64,000 nucleotides of DNA, taken from positions 34,181-98,180 of IMG/VR virus record IMGVR_UViG_3300046683_000929; one strand, written 5' to 3'. This DNA comes from a virus. A program made the position numbers and the translations under genes. Positions 1,871 through 44,701 of this stretch are shown here, piece after piece. The first letter of the stretch is position 1; each line of letters opens with the position of its first letter. The notes below the pieces were generated by a model, which had not been told where the DNA came from, ran no database searches, and saw nothing but the letters and a program-made list of their open reading frames with translations.

Positions 1871-1910
1871 GCAAAAAAGCCAGGATGCTTTTAACTATCC
1901 TGGCTTTTGC
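1871..1910 (-). terminator. Intrinsic terminator closing the tRNA/ncRNA region
   Basis: AAAAGCCAGGAT...ATCCTGGCTTTTTT hairpin with U-tract. Confidence 0.75.
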
Positions 1911-1998
1911 CCTCCGCATACCCAGTGCACTGATGTTAGCGGCAAAACAATTTATCAAAGTTTGTATCCTACCCCCTAAACGACCGCGTCACCCAATC

Positions 1999-2104
1999 AC
2001 AGATACATAGCAGGCCGGGATCGAACCGGCGTCTCAAACTTTAATGTCCTAAGTACCATACCAGCAGTCTCTCAACTACTGGCTGCCTTCGCCGGGATAT
2101 CTGT
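1999..2104 (-). ncRNA. tRNA-like structured RNA or degenerate tRNA
   Basis: Perfect T-arm GCCGG-TTCGATC-CCGGC; 8-bp hairpin CCAGTAGT/ACTGCTGG; GGCAG/CTGCT stem; outer stem ACAGATAT/GTATCTGT; no sound anticodon arm. Confidence 0.45.
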
Positions 2105-2228
2105 CGCATTAGTTTTCTAATCCCTATAACACAACTTGCTAAAGCATTTTCCCTTTTGTTGGGGCCAGCGGTTTACTGGCCCCATTTGCATCTACTCTGT
2201 TTCCGTAATAACGGGTTCTGTATATCGG

Positions 2229-2294
2229 GGTATGTTCTAACCATTCTTGAACTATTAGCCTAAACCAAACGGGGATCGAAACCCGTATCTTACC
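2229..2294 (-). ncRNA. Circularly permuted tRNA-like module (T-arm, closed acceptor hairpin, D-arm), YrlA-like topology
   Basis: GGTA-AGAT-[ACGGG TTTCGATC CCCGT]-[TTGGT TTAG GCTAA]-TA-[GTTC AAGAATGGTTA GAAC]-A-TACC. Confidence 0.5.
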
Positions 2295-2542
2295 ATCTTC
2301 TTGAAGCTGACTTATTAAGGATTACCCATGCAGCTATATGTTTTAGCGAACTTAAAGAGAGTAATAAATTACCACGAACTTAAGCCGCTTTTTTTCATTT
2401 TAAGAAAGAGTAGCCAACCTCGCGTCAACTACCCTTCAACCTAAACCTTATCACAATTAATTACCTTGGCAGGTAATTCCTATTGAGACTCAAACATAAA
2501 GTTTATTTTTTAAAATAAAAAATATAAATGAAAATAAATTTG

Positions 2543-2626
2543 TCCAATGGATAGGATTCGAACCTATTAAGCCGCAAAGCAATGGATTTACAGTCCATCC
2601 CAATTCACCGTCATTGGAGCCAAAGG
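2543..2626 (-). tRNA. tRNA-Tyr(GTA) with atypical acceptor stem
   Basis: Anticodon arm ATGGA-CTGTAAA-TCCAT; T-arm ATAGG-TTCGAAT-CCTAT; long variable region; acceptor CCTTTGG/CCATTGG has two U-U mismatches. Confidence 0.8.
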
Positions 2627-2636
2627 ATATTAAGAG

Positions 2637-2719
2637 CGGAGAGTATAGGACTCGAACCCTGCGCTTACACGCCGCGCCTGTTTTCAAGACAGGATGTTCA
2701 CCAATGAACGCTACTCTCC
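2637..2719 (-). tRNA. tRNA-Ser(TGA)
   Basis: GGAGAGT/ACTCTCC acceptor, G73, CCTGT-CTTGAAA-ACAGG anticodon arm, long variable arm; T-stem imperfect. Confidence 0.85.
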
Positions 2720-2725
2720 AAGTTG

Positions 2726-2808
2726 CGGAAAATCTGGGATTCGAACCCAGGCAACCTTTCGGTTGTACAGATTAGCAATCTGCTGCCTTACCACTCAGCC
2801 AACTTTCC
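2726..2808 (-). tRNA. tRNA-Ser(GCT)
   Basis: GGAAAGT/ATTTTCC acceptor, G73, GCAGA-TTGCTAA-TCTGT, variable arm CAACC-GAAA-GGTTG, canonical T-arm. Confidence 0.93.
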
Positions 2809-2812
2809 TTTG

Positions 2813-2893
2813 TACCCCATCCCGGACTCGAACCGGGACGCCGAAGCATAAGATTTTAAGTCTTACGTGTCCTACCAATTTCACCAATGGGGC
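2813..2893 (-). tRNA. tRNA-Leu(TAA)
   Basis: GCCCCAT/ATGGGGT acceptor, A73, TAAGA-CTTAAAA-TCTTA, CCCGG-TTCGAGT-CCGGG. Confidence 0.93.
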
Positions 2894-2896
2894 ATG

Positions 2897-2970
2897 TAGC
2901 CTGCCTCAGACTCGAACTGAGAACATCTTGATCCTAAATCAAGCGTGTCTGCCAATTGCGCCAGCAGGCC
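2897..2970 (-). tRNA. tRNA-Leu(TAG) with short 5-nt variable loop
   Basis: GGCCTGC/GCAGGCT acceptor, A73, CTTGA-TTTAGGA-TCAAG, variable loop ATGTT, CTCAG-TTCGAGT-CTGAG. Confidence 0.9.
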
Positions 2971-2972
2971 AT

Positions 2973-3006
2973 AAAAAAAGCCCCTTGATTTTGTCAAGAG
3001 GCTTTT
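2973..3006 (-). terminator. Attenuator terminator (segments 3:4) directly upstream of the tRNA array
   Basis: AAAAGCCTCTTGA-CAAAA-TCAAGGGGCTTTTTTT; U-tract ends 2 nt before G1 of tRNA-Leu(TAG). Confidence 0.85.
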
Positions 3007-3026
3007 AAAAACTTTCATTTATAAAT

Positions 3027-3101
3027 CTAATCCATAGGATGCCTCTTTGCGTCGTATAACGAATAACTTAACAAGAGACTATATAGATTTTTATTTTTCA
3101 T
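3027..3101 (-). CDS. Attenuator leader peptide MKNKNLYSLLLSYSLYDAKRHPMD
   Basis: Read manually; codons 6-16 are CTA TAT AGT CTC TTG TTA AGT TAT TCG TTA TAC, all Leu/Ser/Tyr, matching the downstream tRNAs; overlaps the antiterminator segments. Confidence 0.82.
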   Translation of the reverse strand: MKNKNLYSLLLSYSLYDAKRHPMD

Positions 3102-3184
3102 ATTAAAACATCAATGGCAACAAGCGATAGTATCTTTATTTTTCTACCAACGAAGTAAGGTACATCTACGGCACATCGATATCA

Positions 3185-3192
3185 CAAAAGTA
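3185..3192 (-). promoter_or_regulatory. Bacteroidota-type -7 promoter element for the leader/tRNA transcript
   Basis: TACTTTTG matches TAnnTTTG; about 85 nt upstream of the leader ATG; no well-spaced -33 TTTG seen. Confidence 0.55.
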
Positions 3193-3223
3193 AACTAATT
3201 TTTTAAAATAAAAAATGTAATTC

Positions 3224-3258
3224 AAAATAAAACTGGCCGACATTAATGTCGGCCAGTT
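3224..3258 (-). terminator. Intrinsic terminator insulating the tRNA promoter from upstream transcription
   Basis: Perfect 28-nt palindrome AACTGGCCGACATTAATGTCGGCCAGTT followed by TTATTTT. Confidence 0.75.
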
Positions 3259-3398: not shown

Positions 3399-3875
3399 TT
3401 AGCCAACAGATAAATCTTTTGCTTTCGAAACTTTACTTTTCGCCTCGACTCTTGCTTGTGTGGCAAGCTCCAAATAACGCTTTGCGTCATTAAGTAAATC
3501 ATCGGCCTCTTTTAATAACTGCTTCTTAATAGATATAAAGTCTTTCACATAGCCGAGTTTTTGATAAACTTCGTATTCATCAAGAAACATGAAATGATAT
3601 CCAGCTGGATTAGCCGAAAAATGAGTTACACTGCCCCTATCTTGCATAGGCCCATGATCTGGCACTATCTTAATGTTGGCACACACAGAACTCCATGGCC
3701 GGGTAATTAAAGCCACGCAAACATCGGCACCATTGCTTCGAGCAGCTGAATCATCTGGATTTGGAAAGAAAATGACAGTTTCGCCAAGTTTTGGCATGCG
3801 TTCGCTGAACGCTTGAGAATTATTTTCCACTTTTTTAATTTTAAAGTCCCCGCAACATCGCGGATATTTAGTCAA
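3399..3875 (-). CDS. Hypothetical protein (true start possibly internal, MPKLGETV)
   Basis: ORF track; C-terminal coiled coil. Confidence 0.55.
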   Translation of the reverse strand: MTKYPRCCGDFKIKKVENNSQAFSERMPKLGETVIFFPNPDDSAARSNGADVCVALITRPWSSVCANIKIVPDHGPMQDRGSVTHFSANPAGYHFMFLDEYEVYQKLGYVKDFISIKKQLLKEADDLLNDAKRYLELATQARVEAKSKVSKAKDLSVG

Positions 3876-4321: not shown

Positions 4322-7300
4322 TTACTTTTTCTTTTTAATTTCCTGCCCCTCAGCAACTATCTTTTGATAACTAAACTTTTCAATGAGTTTCTGTTTAGCA
4401 TATTGCGCTGCTACTGTAGCAGCTCGCTTCGGTGCCATTCCCCTCTTTTCAAGCTCCTGCTGTTTGGGCTCTTTTATCTGCTCGTAGTAGTCCTGGTGTT
4501 CTTGACTAAGCTCTATAACTTTACTTCCAACTTTTAGTGGAGTAGGCTGGCTAAGATCACGATAATTGGGCTCATGAAATTTACTGGCCAATCCATATTC
4601 TACTTGCTTCCGCAGCGCATCTACAGACCGGTTAAAGTCGGCATCATTTAAACCGGCAAAGGCGAGCATGTTTGATAACATACTACTCGCAATCACCGCT
4701 TTCTGATAAGGGGTAATATTAACTGGTACACCATATTTATCAGTGTTGTCGAAAATACGGTACGTGTCTTTGGCGATATCCCCCATGCCGTTAAATGCAG
4801 CCCCATACATACCATAATTGTTCGCTTCGGATATCTGTTGCCCTACTGATATATTTGGCTCATAGAAAAACTCACTATTGGTTAATTTATTGATTCCGCG
4901 CTGGGCCGCATCCTGTGGGGCGTTACCCAATCCGCCGAAAAAATAATTACCTAAAACGTTGGTATACCATTGCTGCAAGAAATTATCTCTTTTCTGCTGC
5001 AACTTAATATCTATTTTATCAAGCACATCTTTTTTCTCTTTATCGTCCCCAAAAATAGATGTAAGGCCATAAGCAAGCCCTTTAGTGACAAGTGCTGTTA
5101 TTCCATACCCAATTGATAGTTTAATCCCCTGGAAGAACGTTTCCTCTACCAAAGCACTCATTAACGATTTCGCAGCGACGCCGGCCTGGTTCTTTCTATA
5201 GTCAGCATCAACAAATGTGTCCTTACTGGCAATAGTTCTGAAATTTTCAGTCAACGTCTGAAATTTATGCATGTTGAAAGAGCCAAACGGGAATAACAAT
5301 GTTTTGGCCGCCATGTAGAAAGCATTGTTGGAATTAATCAACTTTGACCTGGCTGATTTTGAATTTTCATTCAGTTGCTTAGCGGTCATATTCTCTGCGT
5401 AGTCGGCAGCTTCCCTGTTTGGGGTTTCCGCTTCTTTTGCCCAGTCAATTGCTTTAAAATCTACCGCTTTCCCGTTTTTCATTAGATGATCAGCATAGTA
5501 GGTAACCCACGCCCATTCCCCTGTTTTTACGTCCCCATACTTTATAGGTTTCGCTATCTTTCTATCTACCGTTGTGCCGTCAGGATTTAATTGAAGTAAG
5601 TACTTGTCAATTACTGTTTCGGTGTGATCGAACATTTTTTTGATCACACCTTTCTCATCGTTCCCTTTTATCGTATTATCCTTATCGGCCAGCGCCTCGT
5701 CGCGCAGGGTATTCAGCGACGCCATGTTATCGCCACGCTCACTGATAGGATGTTTTTTTATCAGCGCCTTAACCTCATCGCTATTTAGCACGCTCGCGGC
5801 ATCACGCATTAGCTTCGCATCGCCGCCGATATTAACCAGGGTATTGAAGATGGTGGCAGATGCTTGTTTTACCAAAGCCGAATAACTCAACAACTGTTTA
5901 AATGTACCTAGTTTAGTGATGATGTTTAAGCCCTGCTTCATTAACCTCAGCTCCTTTTCGCCAACGCTATTATTCAGACCCATCTCATTCAGGACATTGT
6001 TGCGTACAGTCTCTTTATACATCTGGTGGTTTTCGTTCCCCAAAGCATCCCGCAGCGTACGATTTTTCAATGCCTCGTCAAAGATCTGCCGGCTTTTTAA
6101 AGTATGGATATCGCTGAGCTGATCTTTGATGTTCTGATTTTGCACGTCGAAGAAGTTAAGGTTTAAAACCTTTTGCTTTTCGCCCGATTTTGAAGCCAGC
6201 GGATCTCCTTTCACACGCTGCAGCGTCGCTACCGATCCGTTGGTAGTATTTTGCTCCATAGCAGTAAATCCGAGGCCCTCCCCACTTACTACATCCACCA
6301 AGCCGGTACCAAGAAACCTATAACCATCCCGCATGTGATTGCCCCATGCTTCATATGGCATGTTCAATTGACGCTTTACCACATCCTGGTGCGCAGGTCG
6401 TAGTTCATCATCCGCAGCACGATAAACATCATAAACTTTACGCTCACCAGGTTCCAGAAATTCAATCTGGCGAATCTGATCATAACTCAGGTTCTTTAAT
6501 TGATCGCCATCCGAAACATCAATTCCAGTTGCATCTTTGATTTTATCTGAAAACCCCTGCCAAATATCCCTTTCTATGGCAGCTTCGCTATTATCGTTTT
6601 TAAGGCCCTCGGCGGCTTTCAATTCAATATCCCGCTTGATTATATCAACCCTGCGAATAAGCTCGGCATTCTGCTGCTCTGGCGATGAGAACTCCCTATT
6701 TTGATTTATGTAGGAAAACAAAGAAAGGCGCTGGATTGACTCCGGGCTTTTTGCAATTGTCGGATTCTCTTTAAAAACAACCTCCAGTTTTTTACCTATT
6801 AATTCATCATACCTATGTTTCGCCTGTGCAAAGCCATTCCTAATTTCATCAAAGTGGCTACCGGTATTAAGCTTGCTGAGGAAATCAAAATCGTTATTGG
6901 CTATTCGGCTCATTATAACACTTAGGTTCGCCCCAACAGCCCGCAATTCACCGAGTTTAGTTTTAAACCTGGCACTTTTGCTTTTACGCCCTGTCTCTTC
7001 CAAGTAATTAGGTAATTTTAATGCCCCCTCGTCTCCATTACCAATGGCTTTCGCCTCGAAAATACCTATTCCACTATGATCGTCATTATTGATCACATTC
7101 TCCAATACGTTATTAAACAACCGAAGTGTATCAGCATCCTGCCCGGCCAGCGGCACCTCTTTAAGGATTTTCAAGCTTTCCTTCTGCTCTGGCGACATTG
7201 ATGTATCTATTTCGATTAGATCCTGTTTAGCCGAAGCAATATTCTCCAATGACTCCCGAAGCGTTTCTGAAAGTTCATTTGGCTTATCGTTGATGGTGTC

Positions 7301-10300
7301 AAGTATTTTATGAAAATCCTCCGCAGGTGTATCAGCCACGGAGTTACCTTCCGGATCAATACGAATACTGTCCTTTACCGATTGCTTGTAGATATCCAGC
7401 GCATCATTGATGTTATTTAACTTTTTAATCTTTTCATTGTAGGTGGTATCCGGATCACGAAGAACACGGCTTACGGTACTGGCTATTTCCGACCTATCCG
7501 GCAGCGTACTGAACTGCGTTTGCTTATAATTGAATAAATCATCTCCATAATAAAACTCCTGGTGGTTTTGAATTATATCGTCAGCCCTCGTAGTTAAATT
7601 ATGCTCTCTTTCCTCATTTATAAAATCATGGACTTCCTGCATAGGTACAGAACTGAATTCCTTCATCCTTTGCCCATTGTTGATGTCATCCAAAATTCTA
7701 TTTAATCGCTTTACATCTTTGGCATCATATGGGTTGATGGTAACCAAGTCCTTTATGGCATCTTTTATGTTTTGAGGAACAAAGGAGGCTTTTAATAATT
7801 GCCGGGCATCCTGTATCCCAGACCGGGCATCCTGTACATCGCGGATAACTTCGGCATCCTTTGCTGCCCGCGCAACGAAGTCACGAAACCGATCAAGGCC
7901 CCTCTCTGTCTTAACTGAGTTTAACTGATTGGCAAAGCCCAGCAATTGCTTATCACTGAATTTTATTTTACCAAATGCGCCAGACTTATTTAAGTCGACG
8001 ATGATATTCTTTATTTCCTTACGGATATTATTGAAATTGTCTTTAAGGGCCTTTGTCTGATCTTGGCGAAGTTGTTTTTCCTTGGCCAACCTTTCATCAT
8101 ACTTACCTTTTAGCTCTTTAAGTTTTGCTTTCTGCTTTTCTCCCTGGTCACGAACATACTCACCAAACTTCTCTTTGGTCAAATCGCGCTCCTTTTGTAA
8201 CCTGTCGGCAGCTACTTCTTTTTGATAGCGATCATATTCCAGGAACGCAGCTTTCTGCTCCAGTTGAGCAGCTTTAAACCCAGCATTAAAATCACGATTA
8301 GCCTTCGCAATTGTTTCGCGGACAGGGGCCAGGTTCTTTTTTAAATTCGCAAATGAAATATCGTCACCAGCAGCCTGCTTTTCTTTTATCCAATCCAAAA
8401 CCCGACCGGCATATTCGGCACTTGTTTCGCCGGCCTGGCGAAGAGGCCGTTGCTTTTGCTCGGAAACAGCATCCGAAAATTCCTTATTACCGATATCGCC
8501 GATCTTAACTTCGCTCAATAAGTATTTGGAGTTAATGGTATCCAAAAACTCATGCATGCTCATGTTCTTTATATTCTTGAACTTGCTGATATCATAGCCT
8601 GTTTTCTCCAATACATAACGCTGAAATTTAATCCAGCTATCATTGATGAATTTTGCCACAGTGCCGCGTGTGCCGCTGTTCTTTATAACTTCATTAAGCT
8701 TCCCTTCTCCATCGCGGCCCAGCATGGTAACAAAAGCCTCTTCACCCATCCTATTGCCAGATAACTCATATCCTTTTTGGCGAAGCTCAGCATGAACGCC
8801 GGCTGCATCATTGCCGATACGGATCATTCTATCCCATAAGCCAGGCGCGTTTTCTCTGGCCCACCTGGTTAAGATATGCCCAAACTCGTGAATCTGCGTG
8901 TCAGCATTTACTCTTTCAGGGTTAAAATGAATTATGTTCTTTGTATCTACGAAAGCGTTGGGTAAAGCGTCGCCTGTAGCCTCAATACCGACTTTCTTAG
9001 CCTCTCTTTCAAACGAATCAACATCGGAATGGAATTTCGTTTCGACGCTGGGGAAAACCTTCTCTAAAAGGTTCTGGATAGCCTTGGCGCGTTCCGGTGG
9101 AAGCTTATCGCCTTCCCCCAATTGAAATGGCAAGTCGCCTTCTTTTGGCGTTGGCCTTTCATCCAACCGACCCTCCTTTTCTTCCCGTTGCTCTAAAAAT
9201 GACCCTAAAGTAGTACCTAAACTTTGCAGGAATTTTTCTTTTTGCTCTGGCAATTCCTTGCCGCTTAGCACCTCTTTTAAGCCTAACTCTACCTTTTGAA
9301 TTTTGTTTATGCCCAAGACGTTTTTGACGGCGCTTAAAAGCTCATTATACCACGCTTTTGCTTTGCCAATCCATGTATTGCCAGCGTTAGAAGACTTAAT
9401 AAATGAATCAGCCGCATTTACAGCCCACCATTCCGATGGTGAAAAAAATTCATAGTAGCCATGTGGAACTACCCTGCTTCTAAAAATATCCTTTAACTCT
9501 TTACGGATCTCTTCCCTTTTGGCATAATCGTTTTCGGTTTGCATTTGATCTGCCAAAGTAAGATATCTAATAGCCTTGGATAATTTGGCTTTTTCTTTCT
9601 CATCTTTTGATGCATCTATCTTGTCTTCTAATAAAGACTTTTCTTTATGCAGGCTGTCACCCCACTCTTTTAAAATACCGTCCCTAATTTCAGTAGGTAA
9701 AAATCGCTCGGTGTGATGGAATATTTCATGAATTGCTGTGCTTTTTGAATTGTCCTTAAATAGAGTTATTAAAGCATCTTGGCTACTGTATTGCCCTGCG
9801 GCAAATTTGTCTTTTTTAAGCGTGATATTGATAGCTAAGTCTTTAAATAGCTCAGGGTTCTTATTTAATAACGCACTGGCCAAATCAGCTGATTCCTGGC
9901 TAATTTTCCCTGCCTTGACGCCCTGCGATATTCTTTTCGAAACAAATTCGACTCCGCGCCTCGATGGTTCAAGATCACGAACTGCTTTTTCAGCAATCTT
10001 TAGTGCTTTTTCAGCATTAATAATGTGCTGCGGGAACTTGCTTAACATATCCTCTATCGATTTTCCTTGTTTCATCAAGTACTTATAATCCCATTTTGGC
10101 TTTCCAGTAGCAAGCAATTTTTCAAGATAGGCTTTGTTTCTGTATACATTCCCTAATTCATTTTTAGCCCTTCTAAGTTTATAGTTAGCCTCTTCACGGG
10201 ACTTGTCTAATCCATAGTCGGCATCTTCCCCAGAATCGTCCTGGTAAGGCGATGATAGCTCATTAGTTATTTTTTCTGATCCGCCTGTTCCTTCTTGTGA

Positions 10301-13300
10301 GATAGCACCGCTACCTTCACCCGGACTTGCAAATTCTTCACCATTTGCATTATCTCCGGCTTTGTCATTGTTTTTTTCATCTAAAATATCGTTAACTATA
10401 GTTTTTAAATCCGCAGGCACCTCTTCTCCATTAAACACATCGTGCCAAATGTTGAACATATTCGATGGATCGTCAGCATAATCATTGAACTGATCGCGGA
10501 CGTTTTCTAAAACGTGTTCTGGGTCGTTTAATGACGGATCACTTAATTTGTCTTCTATGAACTTACTAACCTTGTCTTCGTTGGCCAACCCGTCGTATTC
10601 GTTTTGTATGGCACGGATCTCGCCCATGGTTACGTTGCCGTATTGCCTGGCAAGATTTTTTGCGAACCTATTACTAATTTCCTTACCGGTTAGTTCAGCA
10701 TATCTATCCGATATAGCTTTCAATTCAGCGTTGCCGGCAGCTGTGGTATAAGTTGCGGCACCTCCCGGATAGTTGATCATAAATTCTGCCAGGTCGTTCG
10801 CAGTTACCTTATCTTCTCCGTTAAAGGACTGGCGATTTATTTCATCGGCTTGATTATTTAAGTCAGCATCGCCGCCGTCTTTTCTAAAATAATTTAGACG
10901 GATACCACCGGTTTCATTATTAGGATCGTTCACTCGTCCAAACTCTTCCGAATTGGTGCGCGGGCCATAAGCCGCTATGGCTGCCTCAATACTGCCGGTA
11001 TCCTGAAGTTCTTTTACCTTATCGTCATACATGCGGGCAACCTCTTCCGGATTATCTGTACCATGAAGACGCGCTTCCTGCTCAGGGGCATCAAGTTTAT
11101 CAGTATCAAAACCAAATAGGCTTTTAATATCTTCTTTCGGCAGGGACATTTCTGTACCATCATCAAACTTGACATTGAACTCGCCCGCTTTACCTGGAGT
11201 AATATTTACTGGGTTGAATTCTTTGGACCTGTATTGAAATTCCCCTTCGTTAACGTTATTGTTATCGACTTGGCCGGTTCCTTGCTCGCCTCCGTTTCCG
11301 GGCAAACTTTCTCCAGCAACTGCATTAACTCCATTTCTTTCACTATCGACTGGTAGAGCCCCTTCGGCATTTCCTGTATTCGGAGATACGGTTTGAGCCC
11401 TTTCAATTGGAGTTGGTCGTTCTCCTGGCTCTTCAATATGTTGTTCTCCATGTATTTCGTCTGCTTTATTAAGTAAGTCAACCTGAATATCTGTCCTTTT
11501 TTCGACTAAATCAATTAAATTATCGACAGCTTCCGGATTAGCTACTGGATCCGATCCAGTAGGGGATGCCTGAATATTATCAATTTCAGAAGTTAAATTT
11601 TCTACATTATCCTTGTTGATATTTTGCTCAAGCTTTTTAGGATTCAATAAATTATCAATCTGATCAAATTTAGATATAAGTATCGCCTTGTCATCCGGCT
11701 TGATATCAGACTGAGCGATTGAGTGCACAAATCCATCTTTATCATTAATTATGGCATTAGCTACTCCTTTTGCATCAGATGCCCGCGCATAGGTTTTGGC
11801 CAACAAAATGAGCTGCGCTTTTTTATCGGGATCGGTTTCGAGCCGAGCCTGAGCAGCAACATCTAAAGCCTTCGCATTTAAATCACCGGAGGAAACCGGA
11901 CTATTGTATGCTTCTATAATTGCTTCAGGAGTAGCTCTATTAAAATTCTCTAAAGCGTCTGTCTGCCTGGCGTTCATATAGGTTTTGATTTCGTCGTTCG
12001 CGAAATTATTAGCCTTTACACCTGCGTATGCTTTCAAACCTCCAAATACCAAACCAGTGCCAATCCCAGATTCTATTTGACGCTTCAAATCCTCTTTATC
12101 AATTGGCTGTCCATCGATTAAAGCAGCGCCTCCAACCTGAACTATTGGCGCGGCACCAAATATCGTTGCATCCGACAAAATATCTACGCCGCCCTTTGTT
12201 ATTGCACCATTAGCTGTAACAAGCCCGCGTTTTACAAGCTGACTAAACCAAGCATCTGACATCTTGCCGGCAATTCCACCAAGCACACCAGCAGAGACTC
12301 CGCTTACCGCTCCTTGCCCTGCCCCTTTCGCAGCAGCAATAGCAGCATCAGGCTCATCTTCCCCATGCTGCTCTGCCTCGCCATATGACTGTAAAGCTCC
12401 TTTAGCGACCATCCATTTTGTAAATGGGTTCCATACGTATCGTCCAAGCGTGTTTAGTGCCGTAGGGATTTCTGCGGCTTTCGACTCAGGAAGCAATGCG
12501 GTTGCGGCGACATCGGGTAAGAAATCAGTCATATCTTTTGTGACACGACCTGCAATAGTATTCGGAAGCGGAAGGGCATTCATTACATAATCTGCTTTTT
12601 TTGTTTGCCCATCAAGACCAAGTATCATCTTACCTAATGGGTCGGTAGCCCCATCTTCTTCAACTATCTTTCCATACGGGCTTAAAGAACCATCTTCATT
12701 ATAGAGCTTTATAGCCGGTATTCCGTTAATATTATAATTTCTTGTCAGATTAACCAAACCAGAAAGTGTTTTGGTTACTGTACTAGAGGTTGCGCCAGCG
12801 AGTTGCGCCGGAACGTTTAGCCACGATTCTTCTTTGGTGTTTTCATGGATTCTCTTTTTAATATCCTCAGATATTTTCAAGTCCTCCTCTGCTGCATCTT
12901 GATAGGCAATATCACTGCCATATTGAGCTACGCGCCGTTGTTCCCTTCCAACAGGCGTGAGTTTATTATAAGACGCATTAGCGTTTAGTACCTGTTGTAA
13001 TGCGGCGCGAGACTCTGGCGTATCCTGGGTGGTTAAATGACCTATTAGGTCATCTGTTTTTTTATTCTCGGCAACAAGCCTTAATTGATCTTGTATAGCA
13101 AATTGCTTTACTGTATCATTATTGAAGTCAGACTGCTCTTTATCTGCTATACCATTTGCCTGAGTTACCGCAGCGTCTTTATCTTCTTGTTTTACAAAAG
13201 GTATAGGACTTGCTTTTTTAGAAAATGGCAGAACAGGAATGCCATTAACCAGGGAACTTTGGAAAGGTGCTAATCCAGAATCTGATGAGGATGAAGAAGG

Positions 13301-13411
13301 CGTACCATCGCTGCCACCGGGATTTTTTTTTTCACCGAGAATTCCCAGTGGATCAATTGCCGGTGCAGATGATTTCTTTAAGATGCCAAGTGGGTCGTGT
13401 GCGCCGTCCAT
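4322..13411 (-). CDS. Giant internal virion/ejection protein with two zincin-like HExxH motifs (polyvalent-protein-like)
   Basis: 3029 aa; last of three ejection-type genes; N-terminal DPLGIL repeats; Gly/Ala hydrophobic segments; motifs IHEIFHH and IHEFGH. Confidence 0.7.
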   Translation of the reverse strand: MDGAHDPLGILKKSSAPAIDPLGILGEKKNPGGSDGTPSSSSSDSGLAPFQSSLVNGIPVLPFSKKASPIPFVKQEDKDAAVTQANGIADKEQSDFNNDTVKQFAIQDQLRLVAENKKTDDLIGHLTTQDTPESRAALQQVLNANASYNKLTPVGREQRRVAQYGSDIAYQDAAEEDLKISEDIKKRIHENTKEESWLNVPAQLAGATSSTVTKTLSGLVNLTRNYNINGIPAIKLYNEDGSLSPYGKIVEEDGATDPLGKMILGLDGQTKKADYVMNALPLPNTIAGRVTKDMTDFLPDVAATALLPESKAAEIPTALNTLGRYVWNPFTKWMVAKGALQSYGEAEQHGEDEPDAAIAAAKGAGQGAVSGVSAGVLGGIAGKMSDAWFSQLVKRGLVTANGAITKGGVDILSDATIFGAAPIVQVGGAALIDGQPIDKEDLKRQIESGIGTGLVFGGLKAYAGVKANNFANDEIKTYMNARQTDALENFNRATPEAIIEAYNSPVSSGDLNAKALDVAAQARLETDPDKKAQLILLAKTYARASDAKGVANAIINDKDGFVHSIAQSDIKPDDKAILISKFDQIDNLLNPKKLEQNINKDNVENLTSEIDNIQASPTGSDPVANPEAVDNLIDLVEKRTDIQVDLLNKADEIHGEQHIEEPGERPTPIERAQTVSPNTGNAEGALPVDSERNGVNAVAGESLPGNGGEQGTGQVDNNNVNEGEFQYRSKEFNPVNITPGKAGEFNVKFDDGTEMSLPKEDIKSLFGFDTDKLDAPEQEARLHGTDNPEEVARMYDDKVKELQDTGSIEAAIAAYGPRTNSEEFGRVNDPNNETGGIRLNYFRKDGGDADLNNQADEINRQSFNGEDKVTANDLAEFMINYPGGAATYTTAAGNAELKAISDRYAELTGKEISNRFAKNLARQYGNVTMGEIRAIQNEYDGLANEDKVSKFIEDKLSDPSLNDPEHVLENVRDQFNDYADDPSNMFNIWHDVFNGEEVPADLKTIVNDILDEKNNDKAGDNANGEEFASPGEGSGAISQEGTGGSEKITNELSSPYQDDSGEDADYGLDKSREEANYKLRRAKNELGNVYRNKAYLEKLLATGKPKWDYKYLMKQGKSIEDMLSKFPQHIINAEKALKIAEKAVRDLEPSRRGVEFVSKRISQGVKAGKISQESADLASALLNKNPELFKDLAINITLKKDKFAAGQYSSQDALITLFKDNSKSTAIHEIFHHTERFLPTEIRDGILKEWGDSLHKEKSLLEDKIDASKDEKEKAKLSKAIRYLTLADQMQTENDYAKREEIRKELKDIFRSRVVPHGYYEFFSPSEWWAVNAADSFIKSSNAGNTWIGKAKAWYNELLSAVKNVLGINKIQKVELGLKEVLSGKELPEQKEKFLQSLGTTLGSFLEQREEKEGRLDERPTPKEGDLPFQLGEGDKLPPERAKAIQNLLEKVFPSVETKFHSDVDSFEREAKKVGIEATGDALPNAFVDTKNIIHFNPERVNADTQIHEFGHILTRWARENAPGLWDRMIRIGNDAAGVHAELRQKGYELSGNRMGEEAFVTMLGRDGEGKLNEVIKNSGTRGTVAKFINDSWIKFQRYVLEKTGYDISKFKNIKNMSMHEFLDTINSKYLLSEVKIGDIGNKEFSDAVSEQKQRPLRQAGETSAEYAGRVLDWIKEKQAAGDDISFANLKKNLAPVRETIAKANRDFNAGFKAAQLEQKAAFLEYDRYQKEVAADRLQKERDLTKEKFGEYVRDQGEKQKAKLKELKGKYDERLAKEKQLRQDQTKALKDNFNNIRKEIKNIIVDLNKSGAFGKIKFSDKQLLGFANQLNSVKTERGLDRFRDFVARAAKDAEVIRDVQDARSGIQDARQLLKASFVPQNIKDAIKDLVTINPYDAKDVKRLNRILDDINNGQRMKEFSSVPMQEVHDFINEEREHNLTTRADDIIQNHQEFYYGDDLFNYKQTQFSTLPDRSEIASTVSRVLRDPDTTYNEKIKKLNNINDALDIYKQSVKDSIRIDPEGNSVADTPAEDFHKILDTINDKPNELSETLRESLENIASAKQDLIEIDTSMSPEQKESLKILKEVPLAGQDADTLRLFNNVLENVINNDDHSGIGIFEAKAIGNGDEGALKLPNYLEETGRKSKSARFKTKLGELRAVGANLSVIMSRIANNDFDFLSKLNTGSHFDEIRNGFAQAKHRYDELIGKKLEVVFKENPTIAKSPESIQRLSLFSYINQNREFSSPEQQNAELIRRVDIIKRDIELKAAEGLKNDNSEAAIERDIWQGFSDKIKDATGIDVSDGDQLKNLSYDQIRQIEFLEPGERKVYDVYRAADDELRPAHQDVVKRQLNMPYEAWGNHMRDGYRFLGTGLVDVVSGEGLGFTAMEQNTTNGSVATLQRVKGDPLASKSGEKQKVLNLNFFDVQNQNIKDQLSDIHTLKSRQIFDEALKNRTLRDALGNENHQMYKETVRNNVLNEMGLNNSVGEKELRLMKQGLNIITKLGTFKQLLSYSALVKQASATIFNTLVNIGGDAKLMRDAASVLNSDEVKALIKKHPISERGDNMASLNTLRDEALADKDNTIKGNDEKGVIKKMFDHTETVIDKYLLQLNPDGTTVDRKIAKPIKYGDVKTGEWAWVTYYADHLMKNGKAVDFKAIDWAKEAETPNREAADYAENMTAKQLNENSKSARSKLINSNNAFYMAAKTLLFPFGSFNMHKFQTLTENFRTIASKDTFVDADYRKNQAGVAAKSLMSALVEETFFQGIKLSIGYGITALVTKGLAYGLTSIFGDDKEKKDVLDKIDIKLQQKRDNFLQQWYTNVLGNYFFGGLGNAPQDAAQRGINKLTNSEFFYEPNISVGQQISEANNYGMYGAAFNGMGDIAKDTYRIFDNTDKYGVPVNITPYQKAVIASSMLSNMLAFAGLNDADFNRSVDALRKQVEYGLASKFHEPNYRDLSQPTPLKVGSKVIELSQEHQDYYEQIKEPKQQELEKRGMAPKRAATVAAQYAKQKLIEKFSYQKIVAEGQEIKKKK

Positions 13412-43129: not shown

Positions 43130-44701
43130 TTATTTTATATTGAGCAACAGGCACTCTGTAGTTAACATCAACCCGGCTATTGACGCTGCATTTTCCAACG
43201 CCTCTCGTACTACTTTTGTCGGATCAATAACGCCGGCAGCAATAAGGTTTTCATATTTATCGGTACGTGCATTGTAACCAAAGTCACTTTCACCTTCAAG
43301 TATCTTTTTGTGAACCTGGCTGCCGTTAATACCTGCATTTTCGCAAATCTGAAATAGGGGAGCCCGCAAAGAATTAATTATAACTTCAACGCCCTTAAAT
43401 TCATCTGAAGTATATTCTGATTTTAATTCTGCATACTGAAGTGCCCTTATATAAGCAATACCTCCACCGGCAACTATCCCCTCTTCAACTGCTGCCCTGG
43501 TAGCATGTACTGCATCGTCGATACGGTCCCTTTTTTCATTGGCCTCAATTTCGGTTGTGGCACCTACATATATTGTGGCTACGGATCCGTCCAGGTTAGA
43601 TACCCTGGCTTTTAACACTGATTTATCATCGTCGCCGTGCGCAGCTTCGATTGCCAGTTCAAGGTCCTTTACGCGGGCGCTGATTAGTTCCGGATTGCCT
43701 TTGCCGCCAATAATAGTTGTGCTATTCTGGTCAATGATAATCCGGTCGGCCTGGCCCAAGAAAGAAAAGTCAATCTTTTTTAATGCAACTTCATTTTCAT
43801 AGGCAACTTTACCTCCAGTTACATAGGCGATATCCTCCATGATGTGGTGACGAAGATCTCCGTAGCTGGGTGCGGTAACCGGCGCTATTTGCATGCCATC
43901 TTTTTTATTAACCGCAATTACATTCATAGCGGCAGGATCAAACTCATCGGCAATAATTACGATTGGTTTTCCTGAATTTAACACAAACTCCATGGTGCCA
44001 ATGAGCTGCTCCATGGTACGGACTTTTTTATCATATAGCAATATCCATGGGTTATCAAACTCGGCGGTTTGCTTTACCTGGTTGGTCATGAAGTGCTGAT
44101 GGATGAGACCCTTGTCAAACACAAAACCCTTTGAGAATTTAAGCTCTGTTTTTGAACTACTCGAATCCTCAACATGAATAGCGCCGTATTTTCCAACCTT
44201 ATGCATGGCTGCAGCTATCATTCCGCCAAGTTCTTTGTCGTTGTTGGTAGATACCATGGCCACGTTAAGCAGAGTTTCCTCATTGCCATCTACAGCGATG
44301 CTTTGAGATTTTATATGATCAACAACTGCGGCTACTGCCATATCAATGCCGCGCTTCAATGCCATTGGATTAATGCCGGCAGATATCTCTTTCAAGCCCT
44401 CTTCGAAGATAGCCTGGGCAAGCACCGTCGCCGTTGTGGTACCGTCGCCGGCGCTTTTAACCGTTTTTATGGCAACCCCTTTCATGAGCTGCACACCTAC
44501 ATTAACCAGGGGATCTGTTACCTCAACATTACTGGCCACCGTAACTCCATCCTTTGTAATCATTGGCCACCTGCCATCCCTGTCAATAACTACGTTACGC
44601 CCCTTTGGACCCAGTGTTACCTTTACCGCATTAGCTACAGTATCCACTCCCTGCTTTAATAAGTTGCGAGCGTCTTCGTTGTACCTTACTTCTTTGTTCA
44701 T
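43130..44701 (-). CDS. groEL: Chaperonin GroEL lacking the GGM tail
   Basis: VKVTLGPKGRNV, TKDGVTVA, AGDGTTTATVLA, EEGIVAGGG, GVIDPTKV. Confidence 0.97.
   Translation of the reverse strand: MNKEVRYNEDARNLLKQGVDTVANAVKVTLGPKGRNVVIDRDGRWPMITKDGVTVASNVEVTDPLVNVGVQLMKGVAIKTVKSAGDGTTTATVLAQAIFEEGLKEISAGINPMALKRGIDMAVAAVVDHIKSQSIAVDGNEETLLNVAMVSTNNDKELGGMIAAAMHKVGKYGAIHVEDSSSSKTELKFSKGFVFDKGLIHQHFMTNQVKQTAEFDNPWILLYDKKVRTMEQLIGTMEFVLNSGKPIVIIADEFDPAAMNVIAVNKKDGMQIAPVTAPSYGDLRHHIMEDIAYVTGGKVAYENEVALKKIDFSFLGQADRIIIDQNSTTIIGGKGNPELISARVKDLELAIEAAHGDDDKSVLKARVSNLDGSVATIYVGATTEIEANEKRDRIDDAVHATRAAVEEGIVAGGGIAYIRALQYAELKSEYTSDEFKGVEVIINSLRAPLFQICENAGINGSQVHKKILEGESDFGYNARTDKYENLIAAGVIDPTKVVREALENAASIAGLMLTTECLLLNIK

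Follow-up and report, generated by a model that had tools for sequence, protein, structure and literature searches.

A virus-derived stretch of DNA carries five tRNA genes immediately behind a promoter-like box, a short open reading frame (ORF) and an intrinsic terminator, and the question is what a terminator in this position does to the expression of the tRNAs. The stretch analysed (hereafter the window) is 64,000 nucleotides long and corresponds to bases 34181-98180 of a 98,180-base IMG/VR virus record with a GC content of 0.40 and an estimated completeness of 55%. We consider it reasonably likely that the element is a ribosome-mediated (leader-peptide) transcription attenuator controlling the phage tRNA operon, through which the tRNAs would probably be made only when their codons are decoded slowly.

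The tRNA array and the leader preceding it

Using ARAGORN, we detected five tRNAs on the minus strand between positions 2970 and 2542, which are the only tRNAs in all 98,180 bases of the record. The features of the region are as follows, in the direction of transcription:

3231..3258, minus strand: intrinsic terminator of the preceding transcription unit (terminator scan and palindrome), with a perfect 12-bp stem and a T-rich tail
3198..3238, minus strand: copy 1 of a 41-nt direct repeat, an AT-rich promoter-upstream module, 85% identical to 2505-2545
3185..3192, minus strand: putative Bacteroidota -7 promoter box, TAnnTTTG (consensus match only; no -33 TTG at the usual spacing)
3102..3182, minus strand: predicted 5' untranslated leader, with a long-range hairpin ending 6 nt before the start codon (MFE fold of 3182-2971)
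3027..3101, minus strand: leader ORF of 24 codons and a TAG stop, with an A-rich start encoding Met-Lys-Asn-Lys-Asn
3054..3086, minus strand: control run of 11 consecutive Leu/Ser/Tyr codons (codons 6-16), LYSLLLSYSLY (reading-frame scan)
2896..2970, minus strand: tRNA-Leu(tag) (ARAGORN), 75 nt, with a short variable arm
2812..2893, minus strand: tRNA-Leu(taa) (ARAGORN)
2725..2808, minus strand: tRNA-Ser(gct) (ARAGORN)
2636..2719, minus strand: tRNA-Ser(tga) (ARAGORN), with a non-canonical body that falls below the Rfam tRNA gathering score
2542..2626, minus strand: tRNA-Tyr(gta) (ARAGORN), followed by no terminator
2491..2545, minus strand: copy 2 of the 41-nt repeat (2505-2545) and another -7-like box (2498-2491), at the head of the RNA unit that follows
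1872..2485, minus strand: structured RNA unit without ORFs, containing two T-arm-like modules and closed by a terminator at 1908-1875

The initial annotation had described the five minus-strand tRNAs, with anticodons TAG and TAA (Leu), GCT and TGA (Ser) and GTA (Tyr), a 24-aa ORF at 3101-3027 whose codons 6-16 all encode Leu, Ser or Tyr, a -7 element at 3185-3192 and a U-tailed terminator ending 2 nt before the tRNAs. All of these parts were recovered by computation: ARAGORN returned the same tRNAs, the ORF and its codon run were confirmed, the -7 element matches the Bacteroidota consensus, and the terminator was obtained by folding. Inspection of the control codons likewise bore out the count given there, namely that 10 of the 11 can be read by the five anticodons with standard wobble, the exception being CTC.

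The -7 box (3192-3185) is among only 4 in 98 kb with at least 85% A+T over the 30 nt upstream, and it lies 84 nt before the ATG, compared with 4-12 nt in the leaders of the other phages described below. The 14-nt core of the 41-nt repeat occurs exactly twice in the window, while three hits with at most one mismatch were reached in 0 of 100 shuffles. An in-frame TGA stands 3 codons upstream of the leader ATG. When the window and the complete record were scanned in all six reading frames, the control run was the longest run of Leu, Ser and Tyr codons (11), the next longest being 8. With the measured six-frame frequency of Leu, Ser and Tyr taken together (0.235), about 0.015 runs of 11 would be expected per window and about 2e-5 in the approximately 200 codon positions before the array. 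Codon usage in the phage's long ORFs was unremarkable for Leu, Ser and Tyr.

The tRNAs could in principle be transcribed from a promoter of their own, within or after the hairpin, and the initial annotation had named this as a way in which its reading could fail. Sequence inspection found no TTTG, hence no -7 box, between the start of the ORF and the first tRNA, and we found no sigma-70-like site after the hairpin. This bears on a reading in which promoter, ORF and terminator make up a small gene of their own, for a 24-residue peptide or a small RNA, with the tRNAs transcribed only by incidental read-through. Such a gene would account for the promoter-like box and the terminator that the unit possesses, and the peptide does combine a basic N-terminus with a hydrophobic middle. 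However, the interval ahead of the tRNAs leaves no space for a further promoter, a hydrophobic stretch of 11 residues could not span a membrane, and in the phages compared below the peptide sequence is not conserved while its composition follows the tRNA block; we regard a separate small gene as extremely improbable.

Beyond the array, the lack of a terminator after the last tRNA means that read-through would cross copy 2 of the promoter module (2545-2491) and enter the structured RNA of about 600 nt. The unit at 1872..2485 has a minimum free energy of -187 kcal/mol (z = -3.3). We looked for a second leader-and-terminator unit after the repeated promoter at 2491-2545 and found none there, only structured RNA.

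Predicted alternative folding of the leader RNA

The attenuator reading turns on four short segments and on the hairpin that the last two of them form:

3073..3079, minus strand: segment 1, within the control codons, pairing with segment 2
3041..3047, minus strand: segment 2, in codons 19-21, pairing with segment 1 or segment 3
2996..3002, minus strand: segment 3, the 5' arm of the terminator stem (folding)
2980..2986, minus strand: segment 4, pairing with segment 3
2973..3006, minus strand: terminator hairpin 3:4 and seven T, with 13 pairs (a 9-bp core and an A:U extension) and a 5-nt loop

The geometry of these parts was established by computation, and the segments lie exactly where the initial annotation had placed them (3079-3073, 3047-3041, 3002-2996 and 2986-2980). 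The T tract (2979-2973) ends 2 nt before tRNA-Leu. A simple terminator scan missed the hairpin at 3006-2973, which was recovered by three ViennaRNA folds. The region 3101-2971 folds more stably than all 200 of its dinucleotide shuffles (z = -3.6), and the duplex between segment 2 and the terminator arm has a predicted energy of -12.2 to -12.4 kcal/mol, with p of about 0.01 against dinucleotide shuffles of the ORF.

The effect of a translating ribosome was modelled by keeping a 28-nt footprint single-stranded, codon by codon, in an RNA lacking the 3' arm of the terminator. The predicted probability of the 2:3 helix was 0.88-0.95 while the A site lay within codons 2-14; it fell to 0.66 at codon 15 and 0.06 at codon 16, and was 0.00 from codon 17 to the stop. 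In this model, the control codons are predicted to be exactly the zone where a stalled ribosome permits read-through, and the 1:2, 2:3 and 3:4 logic that had been proposed from the letters alone holds under footprint folding. When no ribosome was placed, 1:2 and 2:3 were about equally probable (0.45 and 0.46), so that the untranslated state is ambiguous for the leader of the window.

The order of events that we propose is the following. Transcription would start at the Bacteroidota-type promoter near 3185, and we infer that a ribosome loads on the 24-codon leader ORF and translates it, coupled to RNA polymerase as the latter proceeds. Slow decoding of Leu, Ser or Tyr would hold the ribosome within codons 6-14, where it would cover segment 1 and leave segment 2 free; the free segment 2 could then pair with segment 3 while the 3' arm of the terminator is still to be transcribed and, with 2:3 formed, polymerase would continue across the five tRNA genes and into the RNA unit after them. 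With fast decoding, the ribosome would be at codon 16 or later, or at the stop, and would cover segment 2; behind such a ribosome 1:2 could re-form, the 3:4 hairpin would fold and transcription would stop 2 nt before the first tRNA.

In the complete RNA, the 3:4 terminator always formed at equilibrium, and it still formed in an equilibrium fold from which segment 1 had been removed. Since the terminator is always favoured at equilibrium, the switch would have to be kinetic. The complete RNA of the trp attenuator likewise folds into its terminator, and that attenuator works kinetically, which is why we did not count the equilibrium fold against the model. Searches against Rfam returned no leader family at its gathering threshold: the sub-threshold families (Phe_leader, Thr_leader, the trpB and aspC motifs and the PyrR site) scored 15.5-25 bits, compared with thresholds of 54-100, with E-values of 0.3-9.6. 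The T-box gave no Rfam match.

The same layout in cultured Flavobacteriia phages

The nearest GenBank relatives of the terminase in the record all infect Flavobacteriia, at only 22% identity, which fits the Bacteroidota promoter type of the window. No close relative of the terminase was found in IMG/VR, and exact patterns of the tRNA-Leu and of the downstream T-arm module gave no match. The 158-aa protein encoded upstream has homologues; the loci retrieved with an alignment of it contain no tRNAs and have only that one gene in common with the window. None of these routes led to a relative of this phage with the array, and the comparison was therefore made on cultured Flavobacteriia phages, reached via blast hits of the tRNAs, namely Cellulophaga phage phi4:1 (three blocks), Tenacibaculum phage Gundel_1 (two blocks) and Cellulophaga phage phi10:1 (one block), giving seven leaders with that of the window. 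All six further tRNA blocks are preceded, as in the window, by a -7 box, a short ORF and a terminator consisting of a hairpin and a T tract.

In phi4:1 (KT962245.1; locus L012), the terminator of each of the three blocks adjoins the first tRNA. The first ORF contains 11 consecutive residues drawn from {P,E,Q,H,L,R} (L012 6796-6764) and precedes a block of Pro, Glu, Gln, His, Leu, Leu and Arg tRNAs, whose anticodons can read 11 of the 11 codons by inspection. The second contains 16 consecutive residues drawn from {A,K,I,G,M,D,T,V,R} (L012 5836-5789), before a block of Ala, Lys, Ile, Gly, Met, Asp, Thr, Val, Arg and Met tRNAs. The run of the third (L012 4078-4049) is rich in Y, S, N, W, F and C and stands before a block annotated in the GenBank record as Tyr, Ser, "pseudo", Trp, Phe and "pseudo"; ARAGORN identified the first of these pseudogenes as Asn(gtt), and the second has a GCA (Cys) anticodon.

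Gundel_1 (MT732474.1; locus L013) has two units. Its first leader, within L013 1469-1730, is rich in Y, S, C, F and W and stands before two unannotated tRNA-like genes (GTA and CCA), followed by Phe, Ser, an "undetermined" tRNA (GCA) and Ser. Its second leader, within L013 2213-2400, is rich in N, L, Q and P and stands before Pro, Gln, Met, Asn and Leu tRNAs, with an HNH endonuclease gene inserted after the terminator. The homologous leader in phi10:1 (KC821618.1; L014 1767-2019) is rich in W, S, Y, C and F and matches its block in part: only Tyr and Phe tRNAs follow, and the leader retains Trp, Ser and Cys codons. From the composition of the leaders, tRNAs for Asn and Cys were expected in phi4:1 and Tyr-, Trp- and Cys-like ones in Gundel_1, and all of them were then found.

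Covariation between leader and array had been set beforehand as the test that could refute the attenuator reading, and it proved positive in these six blocks of three cultured phages. We scored every leader against every block in a 7 x 7 cross-match, in which the top score of each leader was with its own or an equivalent block and the observed sum was reached by 2 of 5040 permutations. The leader of the window, for instance, scored -log10 P of 4.7 against its own block and at most 1.1 against the other blocks.

The position of the antiterminator within the ORF recurs as well. A complement of the leader's own terminator arm was found at ORF nucleotides 49-63 (codons 17-21) in six of the seven leaders, whose terminator arms start at nt 94-121 and whose terminator sequences differ, so that the complement embedded in the ORF changes along with the terminator sequence. 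The Fisher combined p was 2e-8, or 2e-7 leaving the window out; phi4:1 leader P2 showed no significant antiterminator. In five leaders, the codon where the arm is predicted to become less sequestered is also the one that closes the control run. A 1:2 helix was present in the window and in the first phi4:1 leader and absent in the other leaders, whose untranslated state would therefore read through. The ATG-initiated leaders all have an A-rich start encoding Met-Lys (Met-Leu-Lys-Lys in phi10:1), and such A-rich starts fit the initiation without a Shine-Dalgarno sequence that occurs in Bacteroidota.

These comparisons weigh on two further readings. In the first, the hairpin would be a fixed leaky terminator, or a processing or stability element of the tRNA precursor, and the ORF a chance frame that senses nothing. 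Short ORFs are frequent in AT-rich leaders, and a fixed hairpin would suit both the invariable formation of the terminator at equilibrium and the chance-level hits to Rfam leader families; yet a chance frame leaves unaccounted for a codon run that is unique in the record and has so low an expectation at this place, a match between ORF and block that recurs in six other blocks, and an arm complement that recurs at a fixed codon position. We hold this reading to be very improbable.

In the second, translation of the leader matters and the output is something other than intrinsic termination: Rho access, RNase cleavage or folding of the precursor would respond to the ribosome, and decoding speed would set tRNA maturation. 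Just 2 nt separate the terminator from the RNase P site of the first tRNA, and E. coli tRNA precursors with adjoining hairpins are reportedly processed differently, which would favour such an output. Against it, all seven leaders end in a canonical GC-rich hairpin and T tract, and the conserved alternative pairing falls exactly on the 5' arm of the terminator, the signature of antitermination. An effect on maturation in place of termination seems to us improbable, and we retain control of termination by the translating ribosome as the preferred reading.

We examined four control phages in the same way. Klebsiella phage Pylas, Bacillus phage Chewbecca and Vibrio phage Achelous showed no terminator adjoining the tRNA block and no matching ORF, and the same was true of Bacteroides phage crAss001; the design is thus not general to phage tRNA arrays.

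The proposed sensed quantity and known systems

In the attenuator that we propose, the quantity sensed would be how much charged tRNA for Leu, Ser and Tyr is available. The regulated product would then be the sensed molecule itself, which would make a closed feedback loop on tRNA supply. As to the physiological trigger, supply may be lowered by decay of host tRNAs after host shut-off, by a tRNA-cleaving defence or by the phage's own demand; additional tRNA would not release ribosomes stalled by amino-acid starvation. A narrower proposal is that the attenuator serves as a phage-borne sentinel for attack on the tRNA pool, so that the array would be an inducible counter-defence operon read by the ribosome. 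Leu, Ser and Tyr, the isotypes of the array, are exactly the three of class II, and their loss, for example to a host nuclease acting on the anticodon or variable arm, or through decay of host tRNAs after shut-off of the host genome, would be detected and answered by the release of replacement tRNAs, whose bodies are unusual, along with the tRNA-mimic RNAs encoded downstream. We offer this narrower proposal tentatively and think it rather unlikely.

The closest mechanistic relatives are the enterobacterial attenuators (ilvGMEDA and thr, and the single-valent trp, his, leu and pheA), which share the translated ORF, the control codons, the alternative helices, the intrinsic terminator and a response to where the ribosome stands, and among which ilv and thr also sense several amino acids with one leader. 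Unlike these, the phage leader would regulate tRNAs rather than enzymes, with the sensed molecule being the product; it is viral, has a Bacteroidota-type promoter context and shows no similarity to Rfam leader families, and some of its sister leaders depart from the classical 1:2, 2:3 and 3:4 set in having no 1:2 helix. Classical attenuators act on proteins of amino-acid biosynthesis and transport and on synthetases, and the present element lies outside that scope, since what it would regulate is five tRNAs and a structured RNA. We take tRNA genes as the target of an attenuator to be the point of novelty and not a failure of the mechanism. The initial annotation knew of no attenuator described for tRNA genes, and our full-text literature search agreed with it in finding no account of leader-peptide attenuation of such genes.

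The pheM leader of pheST, the attenuators of synthetase genes and the T-box riboswitches resemble the phage element in that a component of decoding is regulated by the state of the cognate tRNA pool. They differ from it in other respects: T-boxes recognise uncharged tRNA by direct binding and need no ribosome, and their conserved specifier and T-box fold are absent in the window, while pheM controls a protein gene where the leader of the window would control tRNA genes. We know of no pheM-type attenuator or T-box that controls tRNA genes.

Why phages carry tRNAs has long been debated, the explanations being codon compensation, replacement of decaying host tRNAs and escape from tRNA-cleaving defences. 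If our reading is correct, some phages at least use their tRNAs as a conditional response, and the leader shows which tRNAs belong together functionally for the phage. Attenuation of the trp and ilv type would also gain RNA genes as targets and a wider range that takes in viruses and Bacteroidota.

Among published systems, the closest in function is a cellular tRNA array, the trn operon of Anabaena sp. PCC 7120, a long array that is silent and is induced under translational stress (PMC8421152) and that is controlled by the protein repressor TrcR (PMC10272220). Like the array of the window, it is an accessory tRNA array kept off and turned on when translation is impaired; it differs in being cellular and repressor-controlled, the array of the window being viral. 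Neither PMC8421152 nor PMC10272220 contains a word beginning with "attenuat-" or the term "leader peptide", and the word "leader" is also absent from PMC8421152.

Phage tRNAs can stand in for host tRNAs destroyed by defence nucleases, with tRNA-Tyr as a documented target (PMC11555353; also PMC10264068 and PMC11464382). Counter-defence examples are the tRNA-Tyr of T5 against retron-Eco7, the tRNA-Lys of T5 against PARIS, and anticodon-loop variants. As far as the outline in PMC11555353 goes, a strong promoter drives the tRNA there and no sensing device is shown, whereas expression in the window appears to be conditional on decoding speed.

Leaders of this kind may also serve as annotation aids, as with the Asn-, Cys-, Tyr- and Trp-like tRNAs that are listed as pseudo or undetermined, or are missing, in GenBank. 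The design is shared by cultured pairs of phage and host (Cellulophaga baltica with phi4:1 and phi10:1, and Tenacibaculum with Gundel_1), so that it can be tested at the bench now.

Leader codons and tRNA identity

In Cellulophaga phage phi4:1 (KT962245.1; locus L012) and Tenacibaculum phage Gundel_1 (MT732474.1; locus L013), tRNA-like genes that GenBank gives as 'pseudo' or 'undetermined', or leaves unannotated, have anticodons for Asn, Cys, Tyr and Trp, and these are the amino acids spelled by their own leader ORFs. Because leader and anticodon agree in these genes, leader ORFs can be used to guide tRNA annotation. The UAG-anticodon tRNA called Leu in our phage, phi4:1 and Gundel_1 is only 74-76 nt and is without the long variable arm that bacterial tRNA-Leu typically has. 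Leu codons, including CTA, occur in each of the three leaders upstream of it, an indication from codon content that this short tRNA serves as a Leu decoder.

tRNA genes compared with their leaders
L012 2944-3017 and 3385-3473: tRNA-like genes, 'pseudo', 'undetermined' or unannotated
L013 about 1730-1879 and 2052-2125: tRNA-like genes, 'pseudo', 'undetermined' or unannotated
Window 2896-2970, minus strand: short UAG-anticodon tRNA-Leu
L012 6092-6167: short UAG-anticodon tRNA-Leu
L013 3329-3403: short UAG-anticodon tRNA-Leu

The isotypes of our phage's five-tRNA array (window 2542-2970, minus strand) are exactly the three class II ones, Leu, Ser and Tyr. Several array tRNAs have unusual bodies: Ser(tga) falls below the Rfam tRNA gathering score, and tRNA-Tyr exceeds it by only 1.4 bits.

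Between the terminator of the second leader of Gundel_1 and the tRNA block lies an HNH endonuclease gene (L013 2462-2968) that overlaps tRNA-Pro and looks like a homing-endonuclease insertion in an attenuator-controlled unit.

Repeats flanking the cassette and the structured region downstream

The cassette formed by the predicted leader-peptide attenuator and the array is flanked on both sides by a 41-nt direct repeat (window 3198-3238 and 2505-2545, minus strand; 85% identity), each copy being followed by a -7-like box. Comparably, phi4:1 repeats one promoter sequence before two of its tRNA blocks. The 41-nt repeats may reflect the use of one common type of promoter, or may be the trace left by a cassette duplication or insertion.

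Copy 2 of this AT-rich promoter module precedes a stretch of about 600 nt free of ORFs (window 1872-2485, minus strand), with a predicted fold of -187 kcal/mol (z = -3.3). With a lowered threshold, ARAGORN reported within it a single tRNA-like element (about 2079-2006), whose anticodon loop is abnormal.

Features of the ORF-free stretch (window, minus strand)
2284-2270 and 2029-2015: two T-arm-like modules, not standard tRNAs
1908-1875: strong terminator, ending the stretch

Other reading frames in the window

The predicted transcript opens with a further short ORF, 10 codons long (3144-3176, minus strand), which lies within the 5' hairpin. Upstream of the cassette, a 158-aa protein (3399-3875, minus strand) without a match in PHROG is a member of a family in which about 30 residues are invariant; the family is present in many unrelated phage contigs that have no other gene in common with this phage. 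The structural-gene block includes a single ORF of 3029 codons (4322-13411, minus strand), and a GroEL-like chaperonin gene is found at 43130-44701 (PHROG E = 6e-150).
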